A stretch of DNA of 64,000 nt from Oxalobacteraceae bacterium (lineage in GTDB: Bacteria > Pseudomonadota > Gammaproteobacteria > Burkholderiales > Burkholderiaceae_D): contig CANCDR010000010.1 of the NCBI GenBank assembly GCA_947374865.1, forward strand, positions 20,319 to 84,318. Direction: 5' to 3'. The notes below the pieces were generated by a model that did not search any database, was not told the origin of the DNA, and saw only the letters and a list, made by a program, of their open reading frames with translations. Every line of letters starts with the position of its first letter. Positions within the stretch are counted from its first letter, which is position 1. The translations under genes were made by a program, and so were the position numbers. Of this stretch, positions 16,429 through 35,090 are shown in pieces.

Positions 16429-16440
16429 TTTTGAATTAAT

Positions 16441-16975: not shown

Positions 16976-17114
16976 TCCTTGATTCCCTGATTCGTCGCCA
17001 TGAAGCCCGCATGGTACGCCCTCTGCCATGGCGGGGCAAATTTGCTTTTGGCTCCGGTCAACAAACCGGTATCATTTGGCTTTGTAAATCTATAACCATT
17101 AACGCCCGCCGGCC

Positions 17115-18316: not shown

Positions 18317-20440
18317 TTAGAAATCCAATTGCCCTGTTGCCTTGTACGTGCGTGGAGCGCCTGGGAAGAGATAGCCGCCCAGTGCTGGGGTGACGTCGCG
18401 CCAGTAAAATTGGTTCGCGACGTTATCAACGCCAGCGCGCAAAGTCAGCATACTGCCGGCTACCCGTAGACCATAACGCAGTCCCAGATTAAACACATGA
18501 TAGGACGGCACGATGACGCTATTGTCGACGTTAAACGCCTTGTCCGAAGCGTACTGCCAGGTCCCGTTCACATGCAGACCGGCCAGCTGCGGCAAGTCAT
18601 AGTCGAGGCCAACGGTCGATTTCAATTTCGGCACATTCGTCACCCGCTTACCATCCAGCGCGCGATCGCCAGTCCCCTGCTGCTCTGCATTGAGCGCCGC
18701 CATGCTGGCCGAAATGTGCAGATCACGCGTGAGCTTACCCTGCGATGATAATTCCAGACCACGATGGACGGCATCACCCGAGCGCGCAAAATAATTCGCC
18801 GCATTGGTGATTTCCAGCGGCTTGTGAATCGCAAACAGCGCAGCGCTCACATTCCAGTCCGCACGAATATCCGCTTTCACCCCGGCTTCTATCTGACGCG
18901 ATTTATTCGGACTGAGCTGTTGCGTTACATTCTTTGTTCCCAGTGGCGCAATACCGCCCGCTTCCAGACCCTGCGAATACGCGCCATAGACCGACCAGTG
19001 CATTTGCGGATTCCACACCAGCGCTAGATTAGGCAAGAGTGCAGACTGCGAATACGTATCGCGCTCAATGCGGCTGGCACGTAATCCTGCATGCAGTTTC
19101 ACCCCAGCGCCAAAGCCAATGATGTCTTGCACGAAGGCTGCACGTTCCGCATCTGAGCGCTGCAACATCACAGGCCCCGTCGAAATCGTTGACCCCGGCA
19201 CCACTACCGGACGATAAATATTGCTCGTGCCGTTGGACATCGAACCATAACAATCCATGGTGCCATAAACGCAGTCACCAAAATAATCACGCCGGCGATT
19301 CGTCGCCAGACCCGCGGTGAAAGACTGCGTCAAACTACCGCTGCGCAAGGTACCGGTAATGAAAGCCTGCGAAGCAAACAGCTGCTTGGATTCATTCGTA
19401 CTTTGGTAGTCGTAGACATCGTAATTACCATTCGCGCAAAAGCCCGGGAATAACTCTGCCGAGGCGCAGCCATAGGGGAAGGCGGCATAATCATCACGCT
19501 GAAAATGGTGAAGATTGGCGGCTACCACGGCACGCCAGTCACGGCCAAGCTGGTAATCAAACCGCAGACCCACATTACTGCTGTGCGTGGACACAGGTTT
19601 GCTCCATGGCTGATTATTGAGCATGGTCGCCGGATCAATACCGACCGGCAGTGAGACACCATTAATGAGCTGAAAGCCGGGCTGCGAGAGCTGTGATTTT
19701 TGATTCGTATCCATATCCAACTGCAGCAGCGCCGCAGGTGAAATTTGCCAGTCGAATGCGACCGATACCAGCTGCCGTTCGCCGTTCGCATCCTTGACGT
19801 AGGAGCGTAAGTTTTCATTTGCCAGATTGATGCGATAGCCAAAACGCGCATCGGCAAATTTACCGCCCACATCCAGCGCCACATAACGCGTCCCGCGTTC
19901 GCTCACACCAAACACGACCGACATCAGCGGATTAACGCTAGGTCGCTTGGTGACATAATTGATCACGCCACCGGGCGCTGCCAAGCCTAACTGTAAGCCG
20001 GCCAGTCCCTTGAGGATGTCGATCTGTTCCTTGTTTTCCAGCGGGATCGCGCCATCACCCGGGATGATCAGGCCATCCTTGCGATAGCTGCGCGCATTAT
20101 CCAGCGCAAAACCGCGAATCGAAAATTGTTCGGCATAACCGACGGCGTTATAGGCATCACTCACGCTGGCGTCGAGCTTGACCGCATCGGTGGTGCTACG
20201 GATCTGCAGGTCTTGCATTTGTTGGCGGGTAATGACGGATATGGCGGCAGGCGTTTGCAGTAAGGGCTCCTCGCTCCAGCTACTAACGGCAGAAAATTCG
20301 CCGCGCTCACCGTTGAGCTTGTTGGCCGAGATAACGATCTCTGGCGTAGTTTTGGTACTCGTTTGCGCAAAGCTCGTCGCGCAACTCGCCAGTCCGCACA
20401 GGCAGGCGATGGTCATCGTACTTAAATTATTGTGGGTCAT
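18317..20440 (-). CDS. TonB-dependent outer-membrane receptor
   Basis: 707 aa. It has a signal peptide, a plug domain (VISANK...TPAAISVITRQQM), a beta-barrel and a C-terminal ...TYKATGQLDF ending in an aromatic residue. Confidence 0.9.
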   Translation of the reverse strand: MTHNNLSTMTIACLCGLASCATSFAQTSTKTTPEIVISANKLNGERGEFSAVSSWSEEPLLQTPAAISVITRQQMQDLQIRSTTDAVKLDASVSDAYNAVGYAEQFSIRGFALDNARSYRKDGLIIPGDGAIPLENKEQIDILKGLAGLQLGLAAPGGVINYVTKRPSVNPLMSVVFGVSERGTRYVALDVGGKFADARFGYRINLANENLRSYVKDANGERQLVSVAFDWQISPAALLQLDMDTNQKSQLSQPGFQLINGVSLPVGIDPATMLNNQPWSKPVSTHSSNVGLRFDYQLGRDWRAVVAANLHHFQRDDYAAFPYGCASAELFPGFCANGNYDVYDYQSTNESKQLFASQAFITGTLRSGSLTQSFTAGLATNRRRDYFGDCVYGTMDCYGSMSNGTSNIYRPVVVPGSTISTGPVMLQRSDAERAAFVQDIIGFGAGVKLHAGLRASRIERDTYSQSALLPNLALVWNPQMHWSVYGAYSQGLEAGGIAPLGTKNVTQQLSPNKSRQIEAGVKADIRADWNVSAALFAIHKPLEITNAANYFARSGDAVHRGLELSSQGKLTRDLHISASMAALNAEQQGTGDRALDGKRVTNVPKLKSTVGLDYDLPQLAGLHVNGTWQYASDKAFNVDNSVIVPSYHVFNLGLRYGLRVAGSMLTLRAGVDNVANQFYWRDVTPALGGYLFPGAPRTYKATGQLDF

Positions 20441-20514
20441 AATGGCTCTTCACATCGCTGATTAAAAAAACCAGAGCGAATAAGAGCAAGCAAAGAAGAT
20501 CTCAACGAGAACTT

Positions 20515-20593
20515 GGCGCTCCCTGCGCTGGCATTATCCAGATCAGGTTCGGAGGGTATTTCTCACCCGCAAAAAAATTCGCAGGACCCCTGG
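20515..20593 (-). promoter_or_regulatory. TPP (THI-box) riboswitch in the leader of the TonB-dependent receptor gene
   Basis: The - strand reads CAGGGGTCCTGCGAATTTTTTTGCGGGTGAGAAATACCCTCCGAACCTGATCTGGATAATGCCAGCGCAGGGAGCGCC. This contains the conserved (C/G)TGAGA...ACCC and ACCTGATCTGGATAATGCCAGCG.AGGGA blocks seen in E. coli thiM/thiC leaders. Confidence 0.9.
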
Positions 20594-20873
20594 CAGGTAT
20601 TACTTTACCATAAAATTCCCAAGGTCAATTTTGTCTCCCTGGAAATGCGTATTGCACAGCCTGCTATCTCAGAATCGTTCTTTCAGCAGGATTGCCGACA
20701 GCATGCTCAAAGTCATTAAACAAGAAGTCGTATGGAGGACCGATTGTAAGACCGCTTGCTCGACGATCTTTGGAACATTTTCCAAGTCAAATTTTTATTC
20801 ATCCGAGCAAATTGACGATGATGCAAGACAATTATTGCCAACTCAAACATCATCATCGCCATCAAAAAATTCT

Positions 20874-20913
20874 CTCAAGAAAATTTAAAATTCCCTCAAG
20901 AAAATTTAAAATT
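20874..20913 (+). repeat. Two tandem copies of CTCAAGAAAATTTAAAATT, period 21 bp
   Basis: Direct reading: 20874..20892 and 20895..20913. They sit in an AT-rich region about 115 bp upstream of the GGDEF-EAL gene. Confidence 0.9.
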
Positions 20914-21027
20914 TCCATCGAGGAATTTTAATTTTTTAGTAGTTGTAAATCAACGAATGATGCATGGAATTGATTTCAAATCAGCATTTTTACGTTTAAG
21001 ATAATCCCAGACTTTCAACGCCTCATC

Positions 21028-22524
21028 ATGCTGGACGAATCACAGGGCAAGCGTATGGCTGAACTAAGTATCGAATCCTGTCTGGACTTATGTCATCAAG
21101 CCCGCTCTCTCGACGGTGCCGCGCTAGCAGAGACGCTCAACGCATTGCAAACGGCGCTCGAACAATATCAGCTGCACCAGCCAATTCCCAGCGGTGAAAA
21201 TTCTGCCTCAGCGACTTTGCCGCCGGAGTCTGTGTCTGATGCGCTGCTCGACGATGTATTGGCGAGCTCTGCTAGTGAAAGTCGCCAGTCTGCCGTGCTG
21301 ATCGTGACGCTTGAACGTGTCGTCGCTTTTCGTTATTCGCTCGGCCAGCTGTTCTCCGATCAGCTCGTCATACAGGCCAGTCGGCGATTACGCGAGGTCC
21401 TTGAACAAGAGGATGTGTTAATTCGTAAAGGTACCGGCAAACTGACCATCGCTCTGTCGCACATAAAGGATCGCCATCAAGTCGCCCACGTGACGCAAAA
21501 AATTCTCGACAGTCTGCATCTACCGATCATTATTGACGGTAACGATTTCTGCCTGAGCGCCCATATCGGCATTGCCCTCTTTCCGCAAGACGGACGCGAC
21601 GCGAGTTCACTGGTGCGCTGTGCCGAATCCGCGATGACGCGTGTGAAGGAAGAAAGCGACATCCCTTATCTATTTTATCGACCGGAAATGCAGCAACACG
21701 CGCGTGAATCGCTGCGCATGGAATCAGAGCTACGGCGCGCCCTCCTCACCCATCAGCTACAGCTTTATTATCAGCCCAAGGTCAGCCTGCGCAGCGGTCG
21801 CATCGTCGGCGCAGAGGCCCTGATACGCTGGCGCCATCCAGTGCATGGCATGATGATGCCGGCAGAATTTTTACCGATGGCCGAACAGACCGGTTTGATC
21901 ATCGAATTGGGTAGTTGGGTACTTGATGAAGCCTGCCGACAAATTCGACTTTGGCAGGATGGTGGCATGAGTAGCTTGCCGATCGCCGTCAATATCGCTT
22001 CACGCCAGTTTGATCGCCATCTACCAGAACAGGTGCGTGACGCGCTGATGCGTCATCAGGTCAGCCCCGGCTGCCTCAAATTGGAAATCACCGAAAATCT
22101 CCTGCTGCGCGCTGCAGAAAACGTGATTTCAATCATGAACGAACTGGTGGCAATGGGCGTCGAACTGGCGCTCGATGATTTTGGTACGGGCTATTCGAGT
22201 CTGGCCTATCTGCAGAAATTCCCGATCAGTACGATCAAAATTGACCGTTCCTTCGTAGTCGGCTTACCGCATGCTAAAACCGACTGCGCGATCGCCGGCG
22301 CCATCGTCACGATTGGCCAGGAATTACGACAAGAAATCGTCGCCGAGGGCGTCGAGAACCTCGAGCAGATGCAATTTTTGCGCGAACTTGGCTGCAATCA
22401 GGTACAAGGTTATCTGTTTAGTCCTGCCGTGCCGGCGCAGGATTTTGAGCTGATGGTGCGGCAAGCCCGACGACTGTCATTCAATACCGGTTACACTCTC
22501 GCCTCACGTATCATTCATGGATAA
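21028..22524 (+). CDS. Degenerate-GGDEF / EAL domain protein (likely c-di-GMP phosphodiesterase)
   Basis: EAL motifs are intact (GAEALIRW, DDFGTGYSSL, KIDRSF, EGVE, QGYLFS). The GGDEF position reads RKGTGKLTI. Confidence 0.85.
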   Translation: MLDESQGKRMAELSIESCLDLCHQARSLDGAALAETLNALQTALEQYQLHQPIPSGENSASATLPPESVSDALLDDVLASSASESRQSAVLIVTLERVVAFRYSLGQLFSDQLVIQASRRLREVLEQEDVLIRKGTGKLTIALSHIKDRHQVAHVTQKILDSLHLPIIIDGNDFCLSAHIGIALFPQDGRDASSLVRCAESAMTRVKEESDIPYLFYRPEMQQHARESLRMESELRRALLTHQLQLYYQPKVSLRSGRIVGAEALIRWRHPVHGMMMPAEFLPMAEQTGLIIELGSWVLDEACRQIRLWQDGGMSSLPIAVNIASRQFDRHLPEQVRDALMRHQVSPGCLKLEITENLLLRAAENVISIMNELVAMGVELALDDFGTGYSSLAYLQKFPISTIKIDRSFVVGLPHAKTDCAIAGAIVTIGQELRQEIVAEGVENLEQMQFLRELGCNQVQGYLFSPAVPAQDFELMVRQARRLSFNTGYTLASRIIHG

Positions 22525-22530
22525 ACCGCT

Positions 22531-23637
22531 TTGATCGAATGGGAAGAAAACGGCGCACCGCAATCTGCGCTCTGGCGCTCAGAAGCCGGCGTACCCACGC
22601 CACGACGGGTGATAATTGCCGATGATCGCCTGCGCGCCGATGCCGCCTTCCGACTCGCCAGCGAAGGCACCGCTTTGCTATGGCGCGGCGATTATCAAAA
22701 TGCCCGTCAGCTTTTGCAGGCCATGGGCCGGCGCGCCGAGACCAAAGCGCGCAAGCCTGCCGCCACGCCGCTAGAAGCCTTCAATCAACATCGGCAAATA
22801 CAGTCGCAACGCGCCCGTACCCTGGGCATGCTGCTACTGCCCTTCGATGCCGATTACACGATTCCGCTGCGCCGCGCGCCCGATGTCAAGCTCGCCTGTG
22901 AGCAAGCCTGGGGCGCCCCAACGCAGGCCAGCGTCGCCTCGCTGCGCGAACTGCAGGGCCTCATCGGCGCCCATGAATGGTATAAAAAAGGCGTCGACAT
23001 CGCCGTCCTGGGCGCGCGCATCCATCCCGGCTATGGCGTATTTTCTCCTCTGCGCGGCGAATATCTCGAGCTGATCGCCAACGCGCCCTTACCGAGCCTG
23101 GAGCGGGCATTTGATATCGGCACCGGCAGCGGCGTGATTGCCGCCCTGCTCGCCCAACGCGGCGTGCAACATATCGTGGCCACCGATCTGGATCCACGCG
23201 CGCTGCAATGCGCGCAAGCCAATCTCGATCGACTTGGCTATGCTGCAAAAGTCGAACTTCTGCAAGCCGATTTATTTCCTCCCGGCCGCGCACCGCTCAT
23301 CGTCTGTAATCCGCCCTGGATACCCGCGCGGCCAAGTTCGCCCATCGAACACGCCATCTTTGACCCCGACCACGCCATGCTGCGCGGATTTCTCAACGGC
23401 TTGCCCCCCCACCTCACCCCCAAAGGTGAGGGCTGGCTGATCATGTCCGATCTGGCTGAGCATCTTGGCCTGCGTGCACCCGGTGCCCTGCTGACGATGA
23501 TCGATGCTGCCGGGCTGCAGGTACTGGGACGCAGCGACATTCGTCCGCTTCACCCCAAGGCAAGTGACCCGAGTGACCCGCTGCATCTGGCGCGCAAAGC
23601 GGAGCTGACTTCGCTGTGGCGTCTGGGTGCACGCTGA
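22531..23637 (+). CDS. Class I SAM-dependent methyltransferase with NPPW motif
   Basis: 368 aa. SAM-binding DIGTGSGVIAA and catalytic LIVCNPPWIP. The start is non-ATG (TTG) as given by the ORF track, so it is uncertain. Confidence 0.7.
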   Translation: MIEWEENGAPQSALWRSEAGVPTPRRVIIADDRLRADAAFRLASEGTALLWRGDYQNARQLLQAMGRRAETKARKPAATPLEAFNQHRQIQSQRARTLGMLLLPFDADYTIPLRRAPDVKLACEQAWGAPTQASVASLRELQGLIGAHEWYKKGVDIAVLGARIHPGYGVFSPLRGEYLELIANAPLPSLERAFDIGTGSGVIAALLAQRGVQHIVATDLDPRALQCAQANLDRLGYAAKVELLQADLFPPGRAPLIVCNPPWIPARPSSPIEHAIFDPDHAMLRGFLNGLPPHLTPKGEGWLIMSDLAEHLGLRAPGALLTMIDAAGLQVLGRSDIRPLHPKASDPSDPLHLARKAELTSLWRLGAR

Positions 23638-23847
23638 GGCTGACAAAAATTACCCCTTGACGAGCCTTGTCGAGCAGCGGCAAAAATTACCATCTGGCAC
23701 TATAATCTTTGACAATTGCTGCTGAGTGGATTCACTCAAGCTGATGACCTCCAGCATCGCTTTTGCAAGCGCATTCCTAGTCGCACGAACAAACACCCGA
23801 ACAAACGTCCTAAAAAACGCCCTGATAAACCTAGCCAGAAAGCCCTT

Positions 23848-25467
23848 ATGAACCGCAGAGATTTCGTCAAAGCCAGTCTGGGCAGCGCCGCCGTTGCCGC
23901 CGCCAGCCAAGCCGCCCCAGCATTTGCCGCCCAGTCAGGCGCGCACGCTGCGCACAGTTCTATTGTAGAAGCCGACATCACGCAACTGCAATTGGCCATG
24001 CAGTCTGGCAAACAGAGCGCGCAATCGCTCACCAAGCTCTACCTCAAACGCATTGCCGCCTTCGACAAGGCCGGACCGCGCCTGAACGCCATCATCGAGC
24101 TTAATCCCGACGCGCTGGCGATCGCCAAAGCGCTCGACGTGGAGCGTGCCAGCAAAGGCCCGCGCGGTCCCCTGCACGGCATTCCCATCCTCCTCAAGGA
24201 CAACATTGCCACCTCGGACAAGATGAGTAACAGCGCCGGGTCAATGGCCTTAGCCGGTGCCCATCCGCCCCTCGACGCGCATGTCGTGCAGCGTTTGCGG
24301 GAAGCCGGTGCGGTCATTCTCGGCAAAACCAATCTCTCGGAATGGGCCAATCTGCGTTCTACGCGCTCGACTTCCGGCTGGAGCGGACGCGGCGGCCTCA
24401 CCCTGAACCCGTATGCGCTGGACCGTAATACCAGTGGCTCATCCTCCGGCTCCGCCTCGGCCATCGCTGCCAGTCTGGCCGCCGTGGCCGTCGGTACCGA
24501 GACCAATGGATCGATCGTCTCACCGGCCTCGATTTGCGGTCTGGTCGGCATCAAGCCTACGGTCGGGCTGGTGAGCCGCAGTGGCATCATCCCGCTCTCG
24601 CATACGCAAGATACCGCTGGACCGATGGCGCGTACAGTGAGCGATGCGGCCCTGCTATTGGGCGGCATGACGGGCGTGGATGCCAATGATGCAGTGACCA
24701 ACGACCGCGCAAACACGCACAGGGATTTTTCTGTTTACCTGAAAAAAGACAGCCTGCGCGGCGCGCGCATCGGTGTGGTGCGCAATTATTTTGGCGGCCG
24801 TAAGGATCTGGTCGACCCGGTGATTGAGAAGGCGCTGTCGGTATTACGTCAGCAAGGCGCCATCTTGATTGACTGCGAAATGCCCAACGTCGGTAAAGCC
24901 GGCAATGATGGGCTGGAGGTTCTGCTGTATGAATTCAAAGCCGGGCTGGCCAGCTATCTTAAAACTTACGCCCCCGACGCGCCGATCAAAAATATGGCGG
25001 ATCTGATCGCCTACAATCTTCAGCATCAGGACCGCGAGTTGCCTTATTTCGGCCAGGAATACCTCATCCGCGCGCAAGCCAAGGGGGACCTCACGAGCCA
25101 GGAATATCTGGATGCGCTGGCCAATGTACGGCGTTATTCTCGCACCGAAGGCATCGACCAGCTGATGAACCTGCATCAGCTCGATGCCCTCGTCGCTCCC
25201 ACCAACGGTACCGCCTGGCTGACTGACTTGATCAATGGCGACAGTTCCGGCGCCAGCTTTGCCGGCCCGGCCGCAGTCGCCGGCTACCCGCACATCACCG
25301 TACCTGCCGGCCAGGTACATGGATTACCGGTCGCCCTCTCCTTCGTCGGCCGTGCCTGGTCAGAACCGACATTGATCGGACTGGCCTATAGCTACGAACA
25401 GGCATCACTGGCCCGTCGCCCGCCAACGTATGCGCGCAGTTTATCCTTGCGGGCGGGTTCTGTTTAA
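23848..25467 (+). CDS. Amidase-signature family amidase, Tat-exported
   Basis: ORF 23716..25467. The ATG at 23848 gives the twin-arginine leader MNRRDFVKASLGSAAVAAASQAAPAFA. AS motifs are GIPILLKDNI and GSSSGSASAIAA. Confidence 0.85.
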   Translation: MNRRDFVKASLGSAAVAAASQAAPAFAAQSGAHAAHSSIVEADITQLQLAMQSGKQSAQSLTKLYLKRIAAFDKAGPRLNAIIELNPDALAIAKALDVERASKGPRGPLHGIPILLKDNIATSDKMSNSAGSMALAGAHPPLDAHVVQRLREAGAVILGKTNLSEWANLRSTRSTSGWSGRGGLTLNPYALDRNTSGSSSGSASAIAASLAAVAVGTETNGSIVSPASICGLVGIKPTVGLVSRSGIIPLSHTQDTAGPMARTVSDAALLLGGMTGVDANDAVTNDRANTHRDFSVYLKKDSLRGARIGVVRNYFGGRKDLVDPVIEKALSVLRQQGAILIDCEMPNVGKAGNDGLEVLLYEFKAGLASYLKTYAPDAPIKNMADLIAYNLQHQDRELPYFGQEYLIRAQAKGDLTSQEYLDALANVRRYSRTEGIDQLMNLHQLDALVAPTNGTAWLTDLINGDSSGASFAGPAAVAGYPHITVPAGQVHGLPVALSFVGRAWSEPTLIGLAYSYEQASLARRPPTYARSLSLRAGSV

Positions 25468-25526
25468 GGAACTAAGTGATGCAGGTCAAATACAATCCCT
25501 GAAGCCAGACCGATGCTGACCTGGCC

Positions 25527-26108
25527 TCAGTTATTCATACAATTGACCTCGATATTATTGACGGCCTGCGTGCTCATGACGGCCGTACCATTCTTCACCG
25601 TGCAGGTTTGTCCTGCCGGTTGGCTCAAGATCGCAACACCATACACGGCACCGATATCGACCAGACCTGAAAAGGTGAATGTGCTCTTACCTGCGGCGAT
25701 GTCCATGTGATCCGGGCCATTCACCAATTGCAGTCCAGACCCTGTTAATCCAATGATGTTGCCGCTGATGGCGTAAGCGTTCACTTGGCAGACGACATCC
25801 GCTGTCGTGATGGCAATGCCGGTCGTCGTCCCATTCGGACCTGAAATCTGGCAGTGTAGTCCCGGTGGCTGCTGTACTACCTGGATGCTATAAGAATGAC
25901 GTGCATCGACATTCTCTGCAAAGACATAGGCATGGGTATTGGCGGGAATGACGAGTAACTGTGCATCATTTTCAATGATCAATCCATCTGCCGTCAGACC
26001 GACCACATCTCCACCCAGGCTCACTGTCGAATAACCCCCGCAGGCAGTCAGGGATGTGAGAAGTGCCAGGATGCCTATCCGGCAAAATGCCTCGTAAAAT
26101 GTTTTCAT
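25527..26108 (-). CDS. Lipoprotein A: two tandem ~85-aa Cys-bracketed beta-type domains (paralogue of 27282..27857)
   Basis: Lipobox LTSLTACGG. Each half ends in a Q(Q/S)P.G..C.(I/V)..(P/K)NGT....A......V.C pattern, e.g. QPAGQTCTVKNGTAVMSTQAVNNIEVNC. Confidence 0.75.
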   Translation of the reverse strand: MKTFYEAFCRIGILALLTSLTACGGYSTVSLGGDVVGLTADGLIIENDAQLLVIPANTHAYVFAENVDARHSYSIQVVQQPPGLHCQISGPNGTTTGIAITTADVVCQVNAYAISGNIIGLTGSGLQLVNGPDHMDIAAGKSTFTFSGLVDIGAVYGVAILSQPAGQTCTVKNGTAVMSTQAVNNIEVNCMNN

Positions 26109-26275
26109 GTTTTCCCCTAGTGCTCATCGAAAATCGGATTGTTGAAAATTTAAAATTACTTGTAGAAATAAATAGTGTGATCAATACAGTGATTAATAAA
26201 ATGGATAGATTCAAAAATTCATAGAGCTACACCGCAGGTGATATATGAATAAAAAAGGGTTTTAAATGTAGTGCT

Positions 26276-26884
26276 TTAAATGCAGTTAATTTCAATATTA
26301 CGGATGGCGTCCGTGCCCATCGTCCCGGAACCATTGACGACGCTGCAGTGGCGCAGATCAGGCTGTGTCTTGACTGAAACGCCATAGCGCACACCCGGAA
26401 AAAGTTTGGTAGGAAAGCTAAAGTTTTTGCTCGCCGATGTCAGCTTCACCGTATCGGTCCCATTCGCCAGAGTCAGTACCTGGCCATCTGTCAAACCAGT
26501 GACGACCCCACCCAAGCTATTCTCAACCCCACAGGTCACGTTGACCGGCGTGTTATTTTCCAGTGAGGCGGTATGAAATCGTTGGTCCACATAACATTGA
26601 AGACCGACTGGTTGAGCCAGAATGTTCACGCTAAAAATCAAATCGGCATTCATGTGAGTCGGAAATGAAAACGTCGTCGCATTGGTCGGCACAGTGATGG
26701 CATTCAAGCCATCTGAAAGCGATAAACCATCATTAGAGAATCCGCTCACGGTGCCTGTCACAATCACCATGCTGGGCCCAGAACTGCCGCCACAGGCGCT
26801 TAAGCACAGCAGCAATAACAGCGTGGCGGCTGATTTTATGCAGGGGATTGTTTGCCAATGAGGCAGCAGTATTGCGTTATGCAT
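26276..26884 (-). CDS. Lipoprotein B: two tandem Cys-bracketed domains (paralogue of 27895..28482)
   Basis: Lipobox LCLSACGG, followed by TGTVSGFSNDGLSLSDGLNAITVP...FSFP..., QPVGLQCYV.. and QPDLRHCSVVNGSGTMGTDAIRNIEINC. Confidence 0.75.
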   Translation of the reverse strand: MHNAILLPHWQTIPCIKSAATLLLLLCLSACGGSSGPSMVIVTGTVSGFSNDGLSLSDGLNAITVPTNATTFSFPTHMNADLIFSVNILAQPVGLQCYVDQRFHTASLENNTPVNVTCGVENSLGGVVTGLTDGQVLTLANGTDTVKLTSASKNFSFPTKLFPGVRYGVSVKTQPDLRHCSVVNGSGTMGTDAIRNIEINCI

Positions 26885-27033
26885 TGAATTGTCCCAGAAG
26901 ATGGAGATCCGCTCCCAGCTCCACTACATTCAGGTGAAATACAGGAAGCCCCTGGAAAAATTATGCCGCAATTTGATTAACAAAATGGAAAGTTAAAGGT
27001 TTAAATTTTTGCGTGTCGACTGCTATCGACACG

Positions 27034-27075
27034 CAAAAAAATACGGCCTCCAAAGCAAACAATGCTTTGGAGGCC
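27034..27075 (-). terminator. Intrinsic terminator of tRNA-Leu
   Basis: Perfect 13-bp stem GGCCTCCAAAGCA/TGCTTTGGAGGCC (27045..27075), followed on the - strand by GTATTTTTTT. Confidence 0.8.
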
Positions 27076-27085
27076 GCATCAATAT

Positions 27086-27178
27086 TGGTACCTGAGACCG
27101 GACTTGAACCGGGACGCCCCCTCTCGGGTAAGCGGCGGATTTTAAGTCCGCTGTGTCTACCAATTTCACCACTCAGGC
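27086..27178 (-). tRNA. tRNA-Leu (anticodon TAA), type II with a long variable arm
   Basis: The - strand reads GCCTGAGTGGTGAAATTGGTAGACAC...GCGGA-CTTAAAA-TCCGC...GGTTCAAGTCCGG...CTCAGGT-A-CCA. At 93 nt it is longer than usual, so boundaries should be confirmed with tRNAscan-SE. Confidence 0.8.
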
Positions 27179-27281
27179 GGTGTGAAGTGCGCGTAAATAT
27201 GCCATTTATGCGCAAAATTTACTGCAAACGGATTGTAGCATTTAACCCGTCACTTTGACGCATTCAAGCGTCAGTGCAGGA

Positions 27282-27857
27282 TCAAATACAGGTGATCGCG
27301 ATATTCGTTACCGCTGCTGAGCCCATGGTGGAGGTGCCATTTTTTAACGTGCAGGTCTGGCCGGCTGGCTGCGACAGGATCGCCACGCCATACACCGAGC
27401 CGTCAGAGACCGGCGTAGGCATGGTGAATAAGGAGGTACTACCGGCAATCGTCAGATTATCGGCACCATTCGTGAGCGACAGCCCTTCGCTCGTCAGACC
27501 CGTAATACTTCCACCAACAGTGTACGCATTGAGTGAACAGTAAATGTTTGCCGTGTTAATCGCGATGCCCGTCGTCGTGCCTGCGGCGCCGGAGATCATA
27601 CAAGTCAGACGCGGCGGCTGTGCGTCAATCGTGATGGCATAGGTGCCATGGTCGTCAATTTGTTTTGGAAACACATAGGTCGTAGCATTAATCGGCACCG
27701 CCAGCGACTGGCCGGCGTTGCTGATCACCAGGCCAGAGGTAATCAAACCGCTCACCGCTCCGCCCAGGTTGACCGTCGTATAGCCACCGCAGGCTAGCAG
27801 TGTGAGCGTCAGTAAGCTTGCGAATAAATACCCTGTCTTTTTTACAGCATTCTTCAT
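27282..27857 (-). CDS. Lipoprotein C: two tandem Cys-bracketed domains (paralogue of 25527..26108)
   Basis: Lipobox LTLLACGG. It shares long blocks with A: ACGGY.TV.LGG.V.GL, TTTGIAI.TA, VYGVAILSQPAGQTCT.KNGT. Confidence 0.75.
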   Translation of the reverse strand: MKNAVKKTGYLFASLLTLTLLACGGYTTVNLGGAVSGLITSGLVISNAGQSLAVPINATTYVFPKQIDDHGTYAITIDAQPPRLTCMISGAAGTTTGIAINTANIYCSLNAYTVGGSITGLTSEGLSLTNGADNLTIAGSTSLFTMPTPVSDGSVYGVAILSQPAGQTCTLKNGTSTMGSAAVTNIAITCI

Positions 27858-27894
27858 TTTCTCTCCGAGTGACCAACATGGTCAGCAGTAATCA

Positions 27895-28482
27895 TTAGGC
27901 TTTTGTGCAGGTGACATTCACCGTGGTGACGTCTATTTGACCCATCGTGGCAGCACCATTCGTAACGCTGCAGATCTGTCCGGCGGGCTGAGTCAGTACG
28001 GTGACACCATAAGTAACGCCAGCCATGACTTTGTTGGGAAAGACAAACGTGCTCGAGTTAGCCGTTACAGCGACCGTGTTGGCGCCATTCGCCAGCACCA
28101 GTCCACTGCCGGTCAGGCCAGTGATTTTTCCACCTAAATTATTATTTGTTGCGCACGTGACAACGATCGCAGTAGTGTCGCTGTAACCGGCGGTACCGGC
28201 GCCATTCGCGACCAAACAGGTGTACCCTGCAGGCGGCGACAACACAGTGACGTTGTAGCTGATGCCTAAGTTCATGCGATTAGGAAAAGAGAAGGTCGTC
28301 GAGCCCATCGGAATATTGACCGTGCTCAGCCCATTGCTCAGCGACAGGTTGCCGGTCGTCAGGCCACTGACCGTACCGCTCATGACGACGGTGTTAATGT
28401 CAGAGGAACCGCCACATGCGGCCAACGATAGCAGCGCACCTACCAAGGCCAATGTTCGCATTGGCTTTAAAAAACCCATCAT
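27895..28482 (-). CDS. Lipoprotein D: two tandem Cys-bracketed domains (paralogue of 26276..26884)
   Basis: ORF 27895..28542. The Met at 28482 (MMGFLKPMRTLALVGALLSLAACGG) is preceded by GGAGAG. It shares SGTVSG....LSLS.GL....P...TTFSFP and QP....C.V.NG.GT blocks with B. Confidence 0.75.
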   Translation of the reverse strand: MMGFLKPMRTLALVGALLSLAACGGSSDINTVVMSGTVSGLTTGNLSLSNGLSTVNIPMGSTTFSFPNRMNLGISYNVTVLSPPAGYTCLVANGAGTAGYSDTTAIVVTCATNNNLGGKITGLTGSGLVLANGANTVAVTANSSTFVFPNKVMAGVTYGVTVLTQPAGQICSVTNGAATMGQIDVTTVNVTCTKA

Positions 28483-28903
28483 GAATCTCTCCAAAAATTG
28501 TGGCTGCAGTGTAATGCAAAAAAGCATTTGATTCAAAATCAAAACGAGATTGTACAGTGCCCGACGGCATTCTTAGCGACTTCTAGAAAAAGCCTTCATT
28601 CAGCGCTATTTCTGAGCCAACATATTACAAGATGAAAAGGTCTATGTGCGCCTATCTGAATCAGCCAAGAAGCCCTTCCCCTATTAAATTGCGCTTTTGC
28701 GCGAAACCTCAATCAAGTTTCTCGCCAGGCATTGCAGCTCGACGAGGATGCCTTTACAAAGAAATACCAGCGACGTCTTCTGCATCCCGCCCTTTTGGTA
28801 GATATCGTCCCGGGAAATGTCTTATCGGCCAATGACACGGGTAGCAGGACGGACTTGCCTTACTAGGTCATGGTGATTACCGAGGAAGTCCGAGGAGAAA
28901 AAG

Positions 28904-29593
28904 ATGCAGCACGATGACATGCATGCGCCATTTGGCCGCTTTAAGGATCGTCAGCATGCTGGCAGCCTGCTGGCACAAAAGCTGCACGCCTATGCTGGTC
29001 ACAGGGATGTGATCGTGGTGGCTTTGTCGCGCGGTGGGGTGCCGGTCGGTTTTGCACTTGCCAAGGCGCTGCATGTGCCGCTGGATGTGATGGTAGTCCG
29101 TAAGCTCGGCGCACCAGGTCATGCGGAATATGCCATCGGGGCGCTCGCCAGCGGTGGTCAGCGGGTATTGCAGGATGAAATCATTCAAGCCTTGCACATT
29201 TCGCCGCACATGATCGCCGCAATGACAAAGCAAGAAATGGTGATCATCGAAGCGCGCGAGAAAGCCTATCGCGCCGTGCGACACGCATTGCCTTTGACTG
29301 GACGCACCGTCATCCTCGTCGACGATGGACTGGCGACCGGGACCACCATGCGGGTTGCCATTCAGAAGGTGCGAATGAGCTCACCGGCGCGCCTGATCGT
29401 GGCGGTGCCGGTATCCGCGCGCGAAACCCGCAACGCACTCGCGCCATTGGTGGACGAGCTGATCTGTTTGCGCACGCCAGAACATTTTTATGCTGTCGGT
29501 TTGTGGTACGAGGATTTTGCTCAAACTAGCGATGAAGAGGTCTGCAATTTACTGCGGCAATCGCAAAAAAGACCGTTTTCTCCCTTGCCATGA
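28904..29593 (+). CDS. Phosphoribosyltransferase-fold family protein (function unknown)
   Basis: 229 aa. It has the PRPP-binding-type loop VILVDDGLATGTTMRVAI and an N-terminal F.DR..AG..LA block typical of the 'putative phosphoribosyl transferase' family. Confidence 0.75.
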   Translation: MQHDDMHAPFGRFKDRQHAGSLLAQKLHAYAGHRDVIVVALSRGGVPVGFALAKALHVPLDVMVVRKLGAPGHAEYAIGALASGGQRVLQDEIIQALHISPHMIAAMTKQEMVIIEAREKAYRAVRHALPLTGRTVILVDDGLATGTTMRVAIQKVRMSSPARLIVAVPVSARETRNALAPLVDELICLRTPEHFYAVGLWYEDFAQTSDEEVCNLLRQSQKRPFSPLP

Positions 29594-29665
29594 AGAGCGC
29601 AGGAGAAGCCGTCTTCTGTGCATTTCGCCACTCCAGCAACGCATGGAGTGGCCTGTTTCATTTGC

Positions 29666-31738
29666 TCAAAGGATCAGGTTGACTGAGGAAACGCCAATCA
29701 AGCCCAGGGCTTCCGTCATATCCGTTGGCGAGATGGCACCCGCGATCGCCATGCCTTGCGTGATCGAGGCATCGGCAGTGGCAAAACTGAGTCCCCAGTC
29801 GACGGCAAATTTCTGCGCCACGGCAATTTTATTATCGAGCAAATTGGCGACCCAGCCCCAGGTCGCATCGCCTTTGTAGGCATGTGCGCCACCCAAGATT
29901 GCTGATACCAGTGAGCCGCGTGTTTCTGTGCCGGCAACGAGCAGATCGCTCCAGTATTTCATGCCGCCTTCGTCCGCACCTTCTGGGCGGCCCAGTACAT
30001 TTTTATAGACCACATTGATGAAATCCGCCGTCGTCATGCTGGCACTAAAGCCGGTCAGGCTGGCATATTGCACGCCAACACCGTAAAACGTCTCGGCGAT
30101 CTGCTTGGTCGTTTGTCCGCCGGTGAGCTGATCGATCCAGTAGGCCATACCATCACCGTCCGGAATCCGGTTAAAGAAAGCGACGTACAGCTCCATCAGA
30201 CGCTGCACATCGGCCGCCGGTGCCGCTGCGGCCTTGGCCTGCACCGTCAGATTCACCGTCAGATCAGCAAATTTGAGTGATTCCACGTTGGTAATGAGGT
30301 CAATCCCGTCCTTGCCCGAGTTATCGGTGACCTGGTAGGTTGAGCCGGAATGTCGCAGCGTATAGTTAGCCAGATTGCCGCTAAAGACGAGCGTATCAAA
30401 GCCAGCGCCGCCATTGACGACGTCATTGAGTTCAGTGGTTTTAAGGGTGTCAGGACCGTTGGTACCGTTAATGACTGGCGCAGCCACGACCAGCGGATCA
30501 ACGATCGCCAGAGAGGCCCCTAAAATAATTTTGTCGATGACCTGCTTAGCCGTTGCATTCGGCGATTGCTGAAACAGTAAGGCGGCCAATCCGGCGACAT
30601 AAGCCGACGCGGTCGCACTATCGCCATCTTTTGAGGTGGCATAGCTGCCATCACTGGTCGGCACATAGCCGGTCGAGCTTGCCAATACCCAAGGGAATGG
30701 TGTTGTACCCGGCAGATTGGCGGTATCCACGGGTAATGCAGTCAGCGAATTGTAATTGCCTACATCAATGCATTCACTGCTCGTCAGTGCACTCAACCCA
30801 GGACCGCTTGGTCCCACATTGCCAAAGTCACCGCCCATGACGACGACCACAACATTATGTACATACGCATTATGAATAGCGCTGGCAACGGTGGCGAAAA
30901 ATGCGCTATTGAGGGTACTTTGCACAGGAAGGCAGATCACCTTGGCACCGTTATCGACGGCGTAATTGATGCCCTTGACGATGTTGCCCAATGTCGAGCC
31001 ACTCGCGTCACCGATACGCACATTGAGAATCGATGCGTCTGGCGCTACGCCCTGCGTATCTTGCCCCGTGCGCGTGGTGTGGCTAGCAGCAATGACCGAT
31101 GCCAGTCCGAGCGCATGATCTTGATTGACGCCGGCGCTGGGTTGGGGATTGGTGTCATTATCGACAAAGTCATAGCCGCCAGTAATATTGCTATTAATTT
31201 CTGCATTGGCCGCGATGCCCAAATCGAGCACGGCAACAGTCACGCCCTTACCCGTAATACCTGCCGTCCAGGCTGATGGCGCATGAATCAGATTTAGCGC
31301 TAGATTATTGTTTTGACCGCTCGTCGCCAATGCCGCACCGGTATCCTTAACACCGAGTGAGGTCGCGACATTAATTAAACCAAAGCCCCGCGTTGCAGAC
31401 CAGTCGTCGGTAGTGGTGCGGATAATTCTGCCAGTGACTTCCTGAAAGTTATTCGCCGTATCGGTAACGTTAATATCTCCCGAGGTTTCAGGAAAAAACT
31501 TAAAGCCGATTAATCCATCACCCGACTTGACCTCCCAGACATGACTCGACATCGACGCTTCGACGACTTTTTGCCCTGGCAAAATGGTCGCAAATGGGAC
31601 TTCGAGGCCGTTACGATCCAGCCAATAAATACTTAGGATGGAGGCCGAGTTATTAGTGAGGGTAAATTCAACCGGAGCGCCATTGTCGGCACTGATCACT
31701 TTGGAGGTAATTGGTAGAAAACTAATGGTGGAGGCCAT
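29666..31738 (-). CDS. Leaderless subtilisin-like (S8) serine protease with an N-terminal VHL-beta-like region, an RTX-like segment and a C-terminal DUF4214-like module
   Basis: 690 aa. Catalytic contexts are VAVLDLGI (Asp), NQDHALGLASVIAA (His) and DGDSATASAYVAGLAALL (Ser). It also has GGAGFDTLVF, and the C-terminal LYVAFFNRIPDGDGMAYWIDQL ... VYKNVLGRPEGADEGGMKYWSDLL. There is no signal peptide. Confidence 0.8.
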   Translation of the reverse strand: MASTISFLPITSKVISADNGAPVEFTLTNNSASILSIYWLDRNGLEVPFATILPGQKVVEASMSSHVWEVKSGDGLIGFKFFPETSGDINVTDTANNFQEVTGRIIRTTTDDWSATRGFGLINVATSLGVKDTGAALATSGQNNNLALNLIHAPSAWTAGITGKGVTVAVLDLGIAANAEINSNITGGYDFVDNDTNPQPSAGVNQDHALGLASVIAASHTTRTGQDTQGVAPDASILNVRIGDASGSTLGNIVKGINYAVDNGAKVICLPVQSTLNSAFFATVASAIHNAYVHNVVVVVMGGDFGNVGPSGPGLSALTSSECIDVGNYNSLTALPVDTANLPGTTPFPWVLASSTGYVPTSDGSYATSKDGDSATASAYVAGLAALLFQQSPNATAKQVIDKIILGASLAIVDPLVVAAPVINGTNGPDTLKTTELNDVVNGGAGFDTLVFSGNLANYTLRHSGSTYQVTDNSGKDGIDLITNVESLKFADLTVNLTVQAKAAAAPAADVQRLMELYVAFFNRIPDGDGMAYWIDQLTGGQTTKQIAETFYGVGVQYASLTGFSASMTTADFINVVYKNVLGRPEGADEGGMKYWSDLLVAGTETRGSLVSAILGGAHAYKGDATWGWVANLLDNKIAVAQKFAVDWGLSFATADASITQGMAIAGAISPTDMTEALGLIGVSSVNLIL

Positions 31739-31989
31739 CGTGACTCTTTTCTTTAAATTGGTGATGAATACGCTATATCTGTATTTTTAATCAAAACGCG
31801 CCGTCGCCTTTGCTCAGTTACCGGCACTTTCCCGCGCTTGTTCAATTTTGAAGGGGGACATTACAGAAAATTACACTGTCAGTTGCCAACAGATCATACA
31901 TTTTCCGTAACAAAATGGGGAAATTATGTAGGCAATAAGAATACAATATTCTTATAGGCAATAATTAAGCGCTAGATTTAATGGGATTT

Positions 31990-32063
31990 TGGAGGCGGGG
32001 GTCGGGATCGAACCGGCGTCTACGGCTTTGCAGGCCGCTGCATAACCACTTTGCTACCCCGCC
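31990..32063 (-). tRNA. tRNA-Cys (anticodon GCA)
   Basis: 74 nt. The - strand reads GGCGGGGTAGCAAAGTGG...CCTGCAAAG...GGTTCGATCCCGACCCCCGCC-T-CCA. Confidence 0.9.
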
Positions 32064-32162
32064 ATGGGGACACAGCCTGAACTGCAGCTGTGAAGGTCTG
32101 AAATACGCAGGGCACATAAGGAATGCACCCTTAATACTAAGCGAAAAGACGCTTTTAAAATG

Positions 32163-32238
32163 TGGAGCGGGAGAAGAGTCTCGAACTCTCGACCTCAACC
32201 TTGGCAAGGTTGCGCTCTACCAACTGAGCTACTCCCGC
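32163..32238 (-). tRNA. tRNA-Gly (anticodon GCC), copy 1
   Basis: 76 nt. The - strand reads GCGGGAGTAGCTCAGTTGGTAGAGCGCAACCTTGCCAAGGTTGAGGTCGAGAGTTCGAGACTCTTCTCCCGC-T-CCA. Confidence 0.92.
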
Positions 32239-32348
32239 GTTGTCTTACAAAATCACTACCACCGAACTCAAATACAAGCTGCTTAAAAAAACAGCAGCAA
32301 ACCACCCCGCAATAAAAAAAGGAAGCCGGTAAGCTTCCTATCCGAATT

Positions 32349-32424
32349 TGGAGCGGGAGAAGAGTCTCGAACTCTCGACCTCAACCTTGGCAAGGTTGCG
32401 CTCTACCAACTGAGCTACTCCCGC
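32349..32424 (-). tRNA. tRNA-Gly (anticodon GCC), copy 2
   Basis: Identical in sequence to 32163..32238. Confidence 0.92.
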
Positions 32425-32538
32425 ATGAACAACAGCCACGGATTATAAAGTAATGCCGCTCCATGTCAAGCAAAGTCGCCTTAAAAGTTTGACATTTTTG
32501 CCTTCATTTAGCTCTGTCAGCGGTGGAAGCTTACGCTG

Positions 32539-33120
32539 TTACGTTCCACCGTTACGCTCCTTGATCATCGGCCAAGCCTTGCGCAAATAATAAAGCATGG
32601 ACCAGACCGTGAGCACGGTGGCGATATTGAGCAGCCAGGATCCCAGCGCCGGGGTCCAAATGTCGCCCAACAGCATGTCGTAGTACAGCAGCATGGGAAT
32701 CGCGACCATCTGCGCGATCGTCTTGATCTTACCTAATGAACTGACGGCGATTGATTTTGACGCGCCAATTTGCGCCATCCATTCGCGTAGCGCCGATATG
32801 GCAATTTCGCGGCCAATAATCACGAAGGCAATCACGGCATCGACGCGCCCCAGCTGGACCAATACCAGCAAGGCGCCGGCGACCATGAGTTTGTCGGCGA
32901 CCGGATCGAGAAAGGCGCCAAAGGACGAAGTCTGATTCCAGCGCCGCGCCAGAAAGCCATCAATCCAGTCCGTCAAGGCGGCGACGACGAAAATCGTGGT
33001 CGATGCCACGCCCTGATAAAACGGCGACAGCCAGTCAGGCGGCAAATAAAATACGCCCACCACGAGGGGAATGAGCGCCATTCGAAGCCAGGTCAGCAAA
33101 ATGGGAATATTGAAAGGCAT
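32539..33120 (-). CDS. pgsA: CDP-diacylglycerol--glycerol-3-phosphate 3-phosphatidyltransferase
   Basis: CDP-alcohol phosphotransferase motif DGFLARRWNQTSSFGAFLDPVADK. The preferred start is MPFNIPILLTWLR. Position downstream of uvrC and next to tRNA-Gly/Cys matches E. coli. Confidence 0.9.
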   Translation of the reverse strand: MPFNIPILLTWLRMALIPLVVGVFYLPPDWLSPFYQGVASTTIFVVAALTDWIDGFLARRWNQTSSFGAFLDPVADKLMVAGALLVLVQLGRVDAVIAFVIIGREIAISALREWMAQIGASKSIAVSSLGKIKTIAQMVAIPMLLYYDMLLGDIWTPALGSWLLNIATVLTVWSMLYYLRKAWPMIKERNGGT

Positions 33121-33170
33121 AAAATTCAATTCAGATGGAAAGAAAGCAATCAAGCTGATAGTGTACTAAT

Positions 33171-35090
33171 TTAATGCAATTGCTTGTAGATATCTTCTGC
33201 TAACTGACGCGAGATGCCTTCCACCGTTGTCAGATCCTCAACGCTGGCGTCCATCACGCCGCGCAGGCCACCGAAACGGGCGAGCAATTTTTGCCGCCGC
33301 TTTGCACCAATGCCTTCGATTTCTTCCAGTCGTGAGGTTTGCCGCGCCTTGGCCCGCTTGGCCCGCATGCCGGTAATGGCGAAGCGATGTGCCTCGTCGC
33401 GGATCTGCGCGATCAACATCAGGGCCGCTGACTGCTTACCCAGTTCCTGCGCGGCGCGGCCATCGGCAAAGATTAGCGTCTCCAGACCAACCCGCCGCCC
33501 CTCGCCCTTGGCCACGCCGACGATCAAGCTAATATCGAGACCGAGCTCGGACAAAACCTGACGCGCCATTTCAACCTGCCCCTTACCACCATCAACGAGC
33601 ACAATCTCCGGCATGACGCCGTCGCCGTTGGCGACTTTTTCATAGCGCCGCATGAGCACCTGACGCATCGCCGCATAATCGTCGCCAGGCGTGATGTCGT
33701 TGATGTTGTAGCGCCGGTATTGCGCATTTTGCATGGCGTGATGTTGAAAGACGACGCACGAAGCCTGGGTCGCTTCGCCCTGGGTATGACTGATATCAAA
33801 ACATTCCACGCGCAGTAAGTCGATGTCGGGCAGATCAAGCCCCAAGGCATCGGCCAGGGCGCGGGTGCGTGACTGCTGTGAGCCCTGCTCCGAAAGTAAG
33901 CGAGCGAGCGCAATCTGGGCGCCCTTCTGCGCCATCTCCAGCCAGGGACGGCGCGCCTCCTGCGGTTGAAATACCAGATGAATGCGATGCCCGCATTGCT
34001 CTGACAAGGCTAATATCAGCGCCGGTTCGTCGAGTTCGACGTTCAGGATCAGGGTGCCGGGGATGAAGGTATCGATGTAATGCTGCGCCAGAAAAGCCTT
34101 GAGTACCTCTTGGCTGATGTGATCGTCATCGCTGACGGATACATCCACGTGGGTGGGAAAATACGCCCGGTCACCCAGATGACGGCCACCGCGTACCATT
34201 GCCAGATTCACGCAGGCCCTGCCCCCTTCCACGACGACGGCAATGATGTCGAGATCGGCATCGCCGACGGTTTCCATGCTTTGCTGGTGCAGAATGCGCG
34301 ACAGCGCTGAGATTTGATTACGCGCCAGTGCGGCCTGCTCAAACTTCAATTCACCCGCCAGGGCGTGCATCTTTTGTTCCAGCGTTTGCATGACTTCGCC
34401 CTGACGTCCGCGCAAAAATTTGGCGGCGTTGTCGACATCGGCGGCATAGTCTTGCGGACTAATCGCGTTCACACACGGACCACTGCAGCGATGAATCTGA
34501 TGCAGCAGACAGGGCCGGGTACGATTGGCAAATACCGAATCTTCGCAGCTGCGCAGTAAAAAAACCTTCTGCAAAATTTGCATCGATTCCTTGACCGCCC
34601 AGGCACTCGGGAAGGGGCCAAAGAACTGATTTTTTTTATCCACCGCGCCACGGTAATACAGCATGCGCGGCGAAGCCTCGTTGGTAATTTTGAGATAAGG
34701 GTAAGATTTATCGTCGCGAAACAGAATGTTGTAGCGAGGTTGCAGCGATTTGATCAGGTTATTTTCCAGCAGCAGTGCCTCGGCTTCACTGCGCGTGACC
34801 GTCGTTTCCAGACGCACGATACGCTCAACCATCATGGCAATCCGCGGACTGGCCAGGGTCTTTTGAAAATAACTCGCGACGCGTTTTTTTAAGTCGCGCG
34901 CCTTGCCGACGTAGAGCACCCGGTCTTCGCTGTCAAAGTAGCGATACACGCCGGGCAGATGCGGCAGTTTGGCGACGGTCGCCAGCACGATGGCGCGCCG
35001 ATCGTCGACGACCTCCTTGGCAGGCGGATTTGGCGCAGCAGTGCCCTCCTCCACCGGCGACCTTGCATCAGATGGCGTGGTCGATGTCAC
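33171..35090 (-). CDS. uvrC: Excinuclease ABC subunit C
   Basis: 639 aa. GIY-YIG start (PGVYRYFD...VLYVGKA), UVR domain and C-terminal HhH ([13 protein letters not shown]). The GTG start overlaps the acpS stop. Confidence 0.95.

Follow-up and report, generated by a model that had tools for sequence, protein, structure and literature searches.

The conserved tRNA cluster linked to pgsA is split in a freshwater Oxalobacteraceae bacterium (genome of 3.27 Mb in 44 contigs). In the stretch of DNA analyzed here (64,000 nucleotides of contig CANCDR010000010.1, assembly GCA_947374865.1; hereafter, the window), the genome's only tRNA-Leu(UAA) gene is separated from its only tRNA-Cys(GCA) gene by 4,811 bp (27179-31989). 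This gap contains four genes, which encode an S8/DUF4214 protease (S8), a protein of the phosphoribosyltransferase family (PRTase) and two lipoproteins, D and C. The best explanation for these observations, to which we assign a probability of about 0.65, is that the segment is the result of old, stepwise accretion in situ at a permissive tRNA spacer and not of the arrival of one mobile island. An ancestral block with the order uvrC-pgsA-tRNA-Gly(n)-tRNA-Cys-tRNA-Leu(UAA) would have been opened at the spacer between tRNA-Cys and tRNA-Leu in an ancestor of this lineage, and the gap would then have been filled piecemeal.

Organization of the split cluster

tRNA genes were called with ARAGORN and protein domains were assigned with Pfam. 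Together they show a contiguous block at 31990..35090, comprised of uvrC, pgsA, two tRNA-Gly(GCC) genes and tRNA-Cys(GCA), all of which are on the reverse strand. Both protein-coding genes of the block are core genes: uvrC (33171..35090, with Pfam UvrC domains) is 85-86% identical and syntenic in G001, the only genome of the same genus, and in G003, which is from a different genus of the same family, and pgsA (32539..33153; CDP-OH_P_transf, PF01066, 1.4e-36) is 80-86% identical in Undibacterium species. The tRNA-Gly/Gly/Cys unit has a sigma-70 promoter that matches the consensus at 12 of 12 positions (32442..32469, reverse strand; TTGACA-16-TATAAT). The first tRNA-Gly (32349..32424) is followed by a second copy (32163..32238) that is 99% identical to it over 80 nt, and tRNA-Cys (31990..32063) is the last element of the conserved block.

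tRNA-Leu(UAA) (27086..27178; 93 nt) was also called by ARAGORN. It is on the same strand as the block and has its own strong terminator, formed by two tandem hairpins at 27006..27080 (-54.9 kcal/mol, z -12.5). Open reading frames (ORFs), Pfam domains and lipoboxes identify the four genes of the gap as S8 (29666..31738, reverse strand; 690 aa, VHL-beta-like), PRTase (28904..29593, forward strand; PF00156, 1.4e-15), lipoD (27895..28542, reverse strand; start probably at 28482) and lipoC (27282..27857, reverse strand), the last two being the first and second genes of a pair, D-C. With four genes in the gap, one of them (PRTase) on the opposite strand, and a separate promoter-like element ahead of tRNA-Leu, the three kinds of tRNA are not contiguous and probably do not form one transcription unit. 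This layout agrees with an earlier description made from the sequence alone (the sequence-only reading), which had already noted the contiguous block, the distant tRNA-Leu with its terminator and the four intervening genes, one of them divergent.

The arrangement was recovered from other assemblies by an exact look-up of the S8 protein. The order pgsA-(tRNAs)-S8-PRTase-D-C-(tRNA-Leu)-B-A-amidase-methyltransferase-GGDEF/EAL, in which B and A are two further lipoprotein genes, is present in six independent assemblies from different samples, of which five are metagenome-assembled genomes (MAGs) from NCBI (GCA_9473/9474 series) and one is an ENA assembly. All six are gapless and colinear with the window, with 99.93-99.99% identity over 7-22 kb. 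The separation of tRNA-Cys from tRNA-Leu is a real feature of this genome.

Two single bases distinguish the window from these sister assemblies. At 32340, in the hairpin 3' of the first tRNA-Gly, the window has an A and all six sister assemblies have a T. At 27113 the window has a private G on the forward strand (C in tRNA-Leu), so that the first pair of the T-stem becomes a C.U mismatch; the paired A is present in five of the sister assemblies and in two metagenomic contigs from other species (L154 and L155, described below). These bases are either strain-level single-nucleotide polymorphisms or consensus errors.

Ancestral order of the cluster

The order uvrC-pgsA-glyW-cysT-leuZ, with leuZ as tRNA-Leu(UAA), which the sequence-only reading had taken as its reference, was confirmed in the Escherichia coli genome (NC_000913). 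For comparison with closer relatives, 80 loci around pgsA homologues were taken from one-genome-per-species contigs, and 60 of the 80 were scanned for tRNAs. A tRNA-Leu(taa) of 93-94 nt lies 54-76 nt beyond tRNA-Cys in four Undibacterium genomes (L001, L002, L003 and L006, which comprise sp. Ji83W, U. pigrum, U. curvum and sp. Tian12W) and in an Oxalobacteraceae MAG (L010). The spacing between the two is 60 nt in G003 and 13 nt in G028, which belongs to a different family of the order. The direct succession of tRNA-Cys and tRNA-Leu(UAA) that the idea of a split presupposes is therefore present in several Burkholderiales. Two Rhodocyclaceae have the order Cys-Gly-Leu.

The pgsA side of the window is closely tied to these relatives. 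Its tRNA-Cys is 100% identical to that of the four Undibacterium genomes, the 12/12 promoter ahead of the first tRNA-Gly is also present in L001 and G003, and the window is syntenic with G001 and G003 from 45 kb down to 32.5 kb, as far as the tRNAs, with 75-94% protein identity. Since these relatives are contiguous and E. coli serves as an outgroup, the comparison of gene order indicates that the contiguity of tRNA-Cys and tRNA-Leu(UAA) is ancestral and that the split state of the window is derived. In the G001 assembly neither tRNA-Cys(GCA) nor tRNA-Leu(UAA) was found; its pgsA contig (C4) ends in the tRNA-Gly repeats (L115, 10583-10707), a break that illustrates how often this locus drops out of MAGs.

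Search for the hallmarks of a mobile island

The sequence-only reading had seen an insertion into a tRNA operon, of the kind expected of an island, while noting neither an integrase gene nor flanking tRNA fragments. Both of these absences were upheld. No integrase or transposase domain was found by Pfam in any ORF of at least 120 aa between 23.7 and 35 kb, and a repeat search for flanking tRNA fragments gave only 10-nt chance matches (E 0.3 or worse). When tRNA-Leu, tRNA-Cys and tRNA-Gly, together with the Cys-Leu spacer of Undibacterium, were compared with 20000-32100 by short-word BLAST, the matches were again at chance level, with no flanking repeat family and no tRNA-Leu remnant next to tRNA-Cys.

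The composition of the interval is typical of the genome, which is contrary to the island interpretation. Its 2-kb windows have tetranucleotide distances between the 13th and 66th percentiles of the genome distribution, and a GC content of 0.53-0.56 compared with a genome mean of 0.546 (standard deviation 0.032). An islet at a tRNA-Pro gene elsewhere in the window (8683-16000) served as an internal positive control and was strongly atypical by the same measures (93rd-99th percentile; GC 0.46-0.51). The interval gave no match to phages, and its matches to plasmids were confined to the PRTase gene and were weak (64-73% identity). A reading of the locus as a defence system was considered and rejected: PADLOC returned just a 21-bit, partial and generic PRTase-fold match to ShosT, in the PRPP-binding region, with no ShosA-like neighbour.

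The genes within and around the gap are accessory, with a patchy distribution among relatives. D-C with tRNA-Leu is common to three other species, and close orthologues of S8 and PRTase were not found, on contigs that are short; the G001 assembly does not cover this locus. Moreover, the lipoprotein family continues past tRNA-Leu, where B-A is related to D-C, so that the accessory block does not end at tRNA-Leu. The locus is without island hallmarks, and its host-like composition, with no mobility gene and no att scar, suggests an immobile, long-resident accessory islet rather than an active island. Of the insertion first proposed, the derived split and the accessory, patchy character of the genes therefore stand; the single island does not, as the segment appears to be a mosaic in a permissive spacer.

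The lipoprotein pairs and their association with tRNA-Leu

Among 40 relatives, the lipoprotein pair is present in 10 as a single two-gene module. At all nine fetched loci of the stand-alone pair, no tRNA was found within the 15-20 kb examined. A search of 5.8 billion proteins produced lipoC orthologues with 82%, 74% and 55% identity on three short metagenomic contigs from other uncultured species (L154, ENA ERZ28593269; L155, JGI 3300047306; and L158, ENA ERZ28593642, respectively), and each of these orthologues is followed by tRNA-Leu(UAA). L154 contains a partial lipoD orthologue (D', 78%), the lipoC orthologue (C'), a 103-nt spacer, tRNA-Leu, a terminator and the start of an orthologue of B. 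In L155, C' and tRNA-Leu precede a terminator that differs, an ORF of 108 aa and the C-terminal part of an amidase orthologue (81%) whose relative orientation agrees with that in the window; B-A is missing between tRNA-Leu and the amidase. In L158, D' (53%), C' and tRNA-Leu come after an unrelated gene, and the spacer has a 10-N scaffold gap. A metagenome scan with lipoD gave no matches.

As D-C-tRNA-Leu is common to three other species, the placement of D-C upstream of tRNA-Leu predates the species studied here. As C'-tRNA-Leu-amidase occurs in L155 without B-A, the latter pair was added later, between tRNA-Leu and the amidase gene. These contigs thus point firmly to a shared D-C-tRNA-Leu core and a later arrival of B-A, and to a segment that was built in at least two steps, probably three or more.

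In the window, lipoB (26276..26884), a D-type paralogue, lies 3' of tRNA-Leu, and lipoA (25527..26108), a C-type paralogue, lies beyond it, both on the reverse strand. Downstream of this pair is the amidase gene (23716..25467, forward strand), for which Pfam and a Tat signal support the annotation and of which no orthologue was found in G001. DNA similarity between D-C and B-A is 57-59% and is confined to the coding regions, with no duplication boundaries detectable in the flanks. In a first tree, A was sister to C (support 96/91), with the G001 orthologue outside (97/97), while B, D and the G001 D-type gene formed one clade; A and B were on long branches. In an enlarged tree, A and its 92% identical orthologue (P0129) fell into a polytomy with the C protein of L158 and a well-supported C clade comprised of L155, the window and L154, and G001 and L160, the latter with no adjacent tRNA, formed the sister group. 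These trees partly resolve the origin of B-A: it appears to be the same pair, copied either within this lineage by local duplication with fast evolution or acquired by import from a related genome.

The S8 protease and the PRTase

The full-length S8 protein was found in this genome alone among the 40 relatives. Its C-terminal 270 residues (421-690; 29666-30476) consist of an RTX-like stretch and DUF4214, and constitute an expanded module, of which this genome has about 20 paralogues and G001 has 18, joined to a variety of N-terminal domains. The paralogue most similar to that of S8 (77% identical) is on contig C13; others are on C1, C21, C5, C37 and C14. Massilia, Telluria, Duganella and Pseudoduganella supply most of the full-length homologues, which have 46-57% identity. 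Of the homologues on long contigs, the closest (P0004 on L144; 56-57%) is in an island adjoining tmRNA, and another (P0003 on L156) has the same AlpA and YagK-like genes beside it. The L144 island (10001-18190) carries a P4-type integrase gene (16415-17668) and genes for AlpA, YagK_YfjJ, a resolvase and the Mrr and SNIPE nucleases. Other S8 homologues are in varied, ordinary chromosomal contexts, and never with PRTase or the lipoproteins.

PRTase has no counterpart in G001. Elsewhere in the family it is found sporadically, with 35-58% identity and on its own. It belongs to a huge family that extends across many phyla, and its nearest match among the 5.8 billion proteins is 62% identical. In the same database lipoC and lipoA have orthologues of 74-92% identity; S8 and PRTase have none above 62%. 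These distributions suggest that S8 and PRTase were each acquired separately, and give a weak hint that they arrived later than D-C.

A motif, CCATTTTRTTA, is present upstream of S8, lipoB and lipoA (31908-31918, 26978-26988 and 26194-26204, reverse strand), the locus having three of only seven genomic copies against 1.7 expected. It was considered as a junction scar or shared operator and was rejected, as it is conserved neither in L154 nor upstream of homologues elsewhere.

The tRNA-Leu gene, its putative promoter and its terminator

tRNA-Leu(UAA) of the window is identical to those of L154 and L155 at 92 of 93 positions, and to that of G003, which is contiguous with tRNA-Cys, at 85 of 93. 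The acceptor stem has undergone a compensatory double change: it is GCCUGAG...CUCAGGU in the window, L154 and L155, and GCCCGAG...CUCGGGC in L158 and all other relatives. The derived stem therefore marks the first three as a sub-clade.

Upstream of tRNA-Leu, a 22-nt block, CGGGTTAAATGCTACAATCCGT (27228..27249, reverse strand), is invariant in the window, L154 and L155, and the rest of the spacer diverges. The block contains an extended -10 element, TGcTACAAT, which ends 54 nt upstream of the mature 5' end of tRNA-Leu. L158 has TGaTACAAT upstream of its tRNA-Leu, and no such extended -10 element was found in the contiguous-type Cys-Leu spacers. A metagenome scan with a 21-nt promoter block gave no matches. 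The conservation of the block suggests that it is the promoter of tRNA-Leu. With a promoter-like element and a terminator of its own, tRNA-Leu would no longer depend on the tRNA-Gly promoter. No terminator was predicted between lipoC and tRNA-Leu, and read-through from D-C into tRNA-Leu is therefore also possible. In the first hairpin 3' of tRNA-Leu, pairing is kept in L154 (~1260-1320) by a compensatory change from C:G to U:A; runs of T and A on either side of the second hairpin resemble those of a bidirectional terminator.

The Cys-Leu junction in other lineages

In most other Oxalobacteraceae and Burkholderiaceae, no tRNA-Leu was found in the sequence downstream of tRNA-Cys (5-9 kb for most loci; ~3 kb for G020). 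This group includes Massilia, Janthinobacterium, Herbaspirillum, Paraburkholderia, Burkholderia, G010, G012 and G020. In Ralstonia and Cupriavidus, tRNA-Leu(taa) is 3.8 kb from tRNA-Cys and on the opposite strand, the gap being occupied by three genes, of which one is antiporter-like and one is of the LysR type. Two Nitrosospira/Nitrosomonadaceae MAGs have tRNA-Leu on the same strand at a distance of 3.2-3.8 kb, and the gap contains recQ and small ORFs. As gene content differs among the split lineages, these openings were independent events, and the junction has been opened recurrently. Even among Undibacterium species, all content downstream of tRNA-Leu differs. The solanimycin cluster of Dickeya adjoins the same three tRNAs, and in other strains that position is taken by other clusters (PMC9765074).

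The spacers of the contiguous type already have a stable, terminator-like hairpin with a T-run 3' of tRNA-Cys (z -3.8 and -3.0). This implies that the Cys-Leu spacer is a permissive boundary between units and not the interior of a tight operon. In the corresponding spacer of the window (31739..31989, reverse strand), the contiguous-type hairpin is gone and a weak, AT-rich hairpin (-7.2 kcal/mol, z -0.28) is found within a 10-nt direct repeat (31929-31964) that is unique in the genome.

Proposed stepwise accretion and the alternatives

The accretion proposed above would have proceeded as follows. Pair D-C would first have been placed directly upstream of tRNA-Leu, giving the state that is common to the three other uncultured species, and leaving tRNA-Leu with its own extended -10 promoter-like element and strong terminator. 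A second, fast-evolving copy of the pair, B-A, would then have been placed 3' of tRNA-Leu, before the amidase gene. S8 and PRTase would have been added, separately and perhaps later than D-C, beside tRNA-Cys.

Several observations weigh against this account. The L154, L155 and L158 contigs are just 1.4-2.1 kb long and end before any tRNA-Cys. In G001 the D-C pair is located elsewhere, in a variable region of its own with no tRNA, and the G001 assembly lacks both tRNA-Cys and tRNA-Leu(UAA). The position of A outside the C clade of L155, the window and L154 fits an older duplication followed by loss in L155, or an import of B-A, as well as it fits long-branch distortion. The possible late arrival of S8 and PRTase is read from the absence of close orthologues, a weak argument since the assemblies in the database are fragmentary, and the promoter function of the block upstream of tRNA-Leu is read from its conservation.

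A single integrase-mediated island (S8-PRTase-D-C) could instead have entered at the 3' side of tRNA-Cys, later losing its integrase and att repeats while its composition was ameliorated to that of the host. The position directly 3' of a tRNA gene, the accessory nature of the genes and the nearest S8 homologues on informative contigs, which are cargo of tmRNA-integrated islands with P4-type integrase, AlpA and YagK, are consistent with this. However, neither an integrase nor a fragment of one was found, att repeats and atypical composition are also missing, and the four genes are never together elsewhere. D-C-tRNA-Leu is present in species with 55-82% lipoC identity, while S8 and PRTase have no orthologues above 62% in the database, and L158 carries an unrelated gene upstream of D'. 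A single island is therefore unlikely.

A second alternative is that nothing was inserted: tRNA-Leu(UAA) would have been copied or moved to a place 3' of the lipoprotein pair, with deletion of the copy that once adjoined tRNA-Cys. Many Oxalobacteraceae, G002 and G004 among them, have a stand-alone tRNA-Leu(UAA) away from tRNA-Cys, the tRNA-Leu of the window has its own promoter-like element, and the (short) L154, L155 and L158 contigs show no tRNA-Cys. Yet tRNA-Leu is just 4.8 kb from tRNA-Cys, with the strand and the ancestral order preserved, for which we estimate a random chance of ~0.15% in 3.3 Mb; relocation is thus quite unlikely, and in-situ insertion is inferred in its place. The absence of a tRNA-Leu remnant beside tRNA-Cys does not discriminate between the two, as an old deletion would leave none.

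It is very improbable that the split is ancestral for the group, with the contiguity in Undibacterium and G003 restored by deletion. Most sampled Oxalobacteraceae do lack a tRNA-Leu adjoining tRNA-Cys, but contiguity, with homologous tRNAs of 93-94 nt, is found in E. coli, Rhodocyclaceae, G028, G003 and Undibacterium, and every split lineage has different intervening genes. Exact deletions that restored the ancestral spacing several times would be unparsimonious, and this alternative was already disfavoured by the outgroup comparison. Finally, although tRNA-Cys is 100% identical across several species, the assembly has 44 contigs and that of G001 breaks exactly in the tRNA-Gly repeats, an assembly chimera, with its join in the strongly conserved tRNA-Cys or tRNA-Gly genes, is in practice excluded by the six independently assembled records that span pgsA to the amidase colinearly with at least 99.93% identity.

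Relation to known systems and implications

The locus resembles uvrY-uvrC-pgsA-glyW-cysT-leuZ of E. coli K-12 in its core flanking genes and in the three anticodons, their order and their strand. No other E. coli genes carry the anticodons of cysT and leuZ (PMC11480407), and tRNA-Cys(GCA) and tRNA-Leu(UAA) are likewise single-copy here. Unlike in E. coli, there are two tRNA-Gly genes, tRNA-Cys and tRNA-Leu are 4.8 kb apart instead of 12 nt, and tRNA-Leu has its own promoter-like element and lipoprotein genes on both sides. The glyW-cysT-leuZ variable region of Dickeya is similar in having accessory, patchy genes by the same tRNAs, with content that varies between related species (PMC9765074), but here the DNA is between two tRNAs of the cluster and not beside it.

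Typical tRNA-associated islets differ from this locus, in which there are no integrase or transposase remnants, composition is host-like and D-C is common to several species. As in the tmRNA-integrated island of L144, a member of the same protease family (56-57% identical) is encoded 3' of a tRNA gene; unlike that island, the locus has no integrase, AlpA, YagK, att repeats or compositional signal. The splits in Nitrosospira and in Ralstonia/Cupriavidus are alike in that the same junction was opened by a few kb of unrelated genes, and differ in gene content and, in Ralstonia/Cupriavidus, in the inversion of tRNA-Leu. The locus is thus an unremarkable instance of the variation that genomes show at tRNA genes, and no new mechanism or function is implied.

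Two further possibilities go beyond this interpretation. The unit formed by the lipoprotein pair and tRNA-Leu(UAA), which is kept in four species amid changing surroundings, might reflect functional coupling, a speculative idea to which we give little credence. If it were true, release of the sole UUA-decoding tRNA from the Gly/Cys promoter, possibly with co-transcription of the lipoprotein genes and tRNA-Leu, could allow UUA decoding to be adjusted in step with a programme of surface proteins (the lipoproteins and the VHL-beta/S8 protease), in loose resemblance to bldA-type control in Streptomyces. Alternatively, tRNA 3' flanks may be targeted repeatedly by a scarless insertion process that delivers cargo only.

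On the preferred reading of stepwise accretion, the locus would be a worked example of an island-like gap in a conserved tRNA cluster that is an old, stepwise mosaic and not a mobile element, and one in which short metagenomic contigs of sister species sufficed to order the steps. It would also illustrate that an essential, single-copy tRNA gene can leave its ancestral operon and gain its own (here putative) promoter, and would add one more independent case in which the pgsA-linked Gly-Cys-Leu triad has been opened at its spacers, a pattern that is widespread in Proteobacteria.

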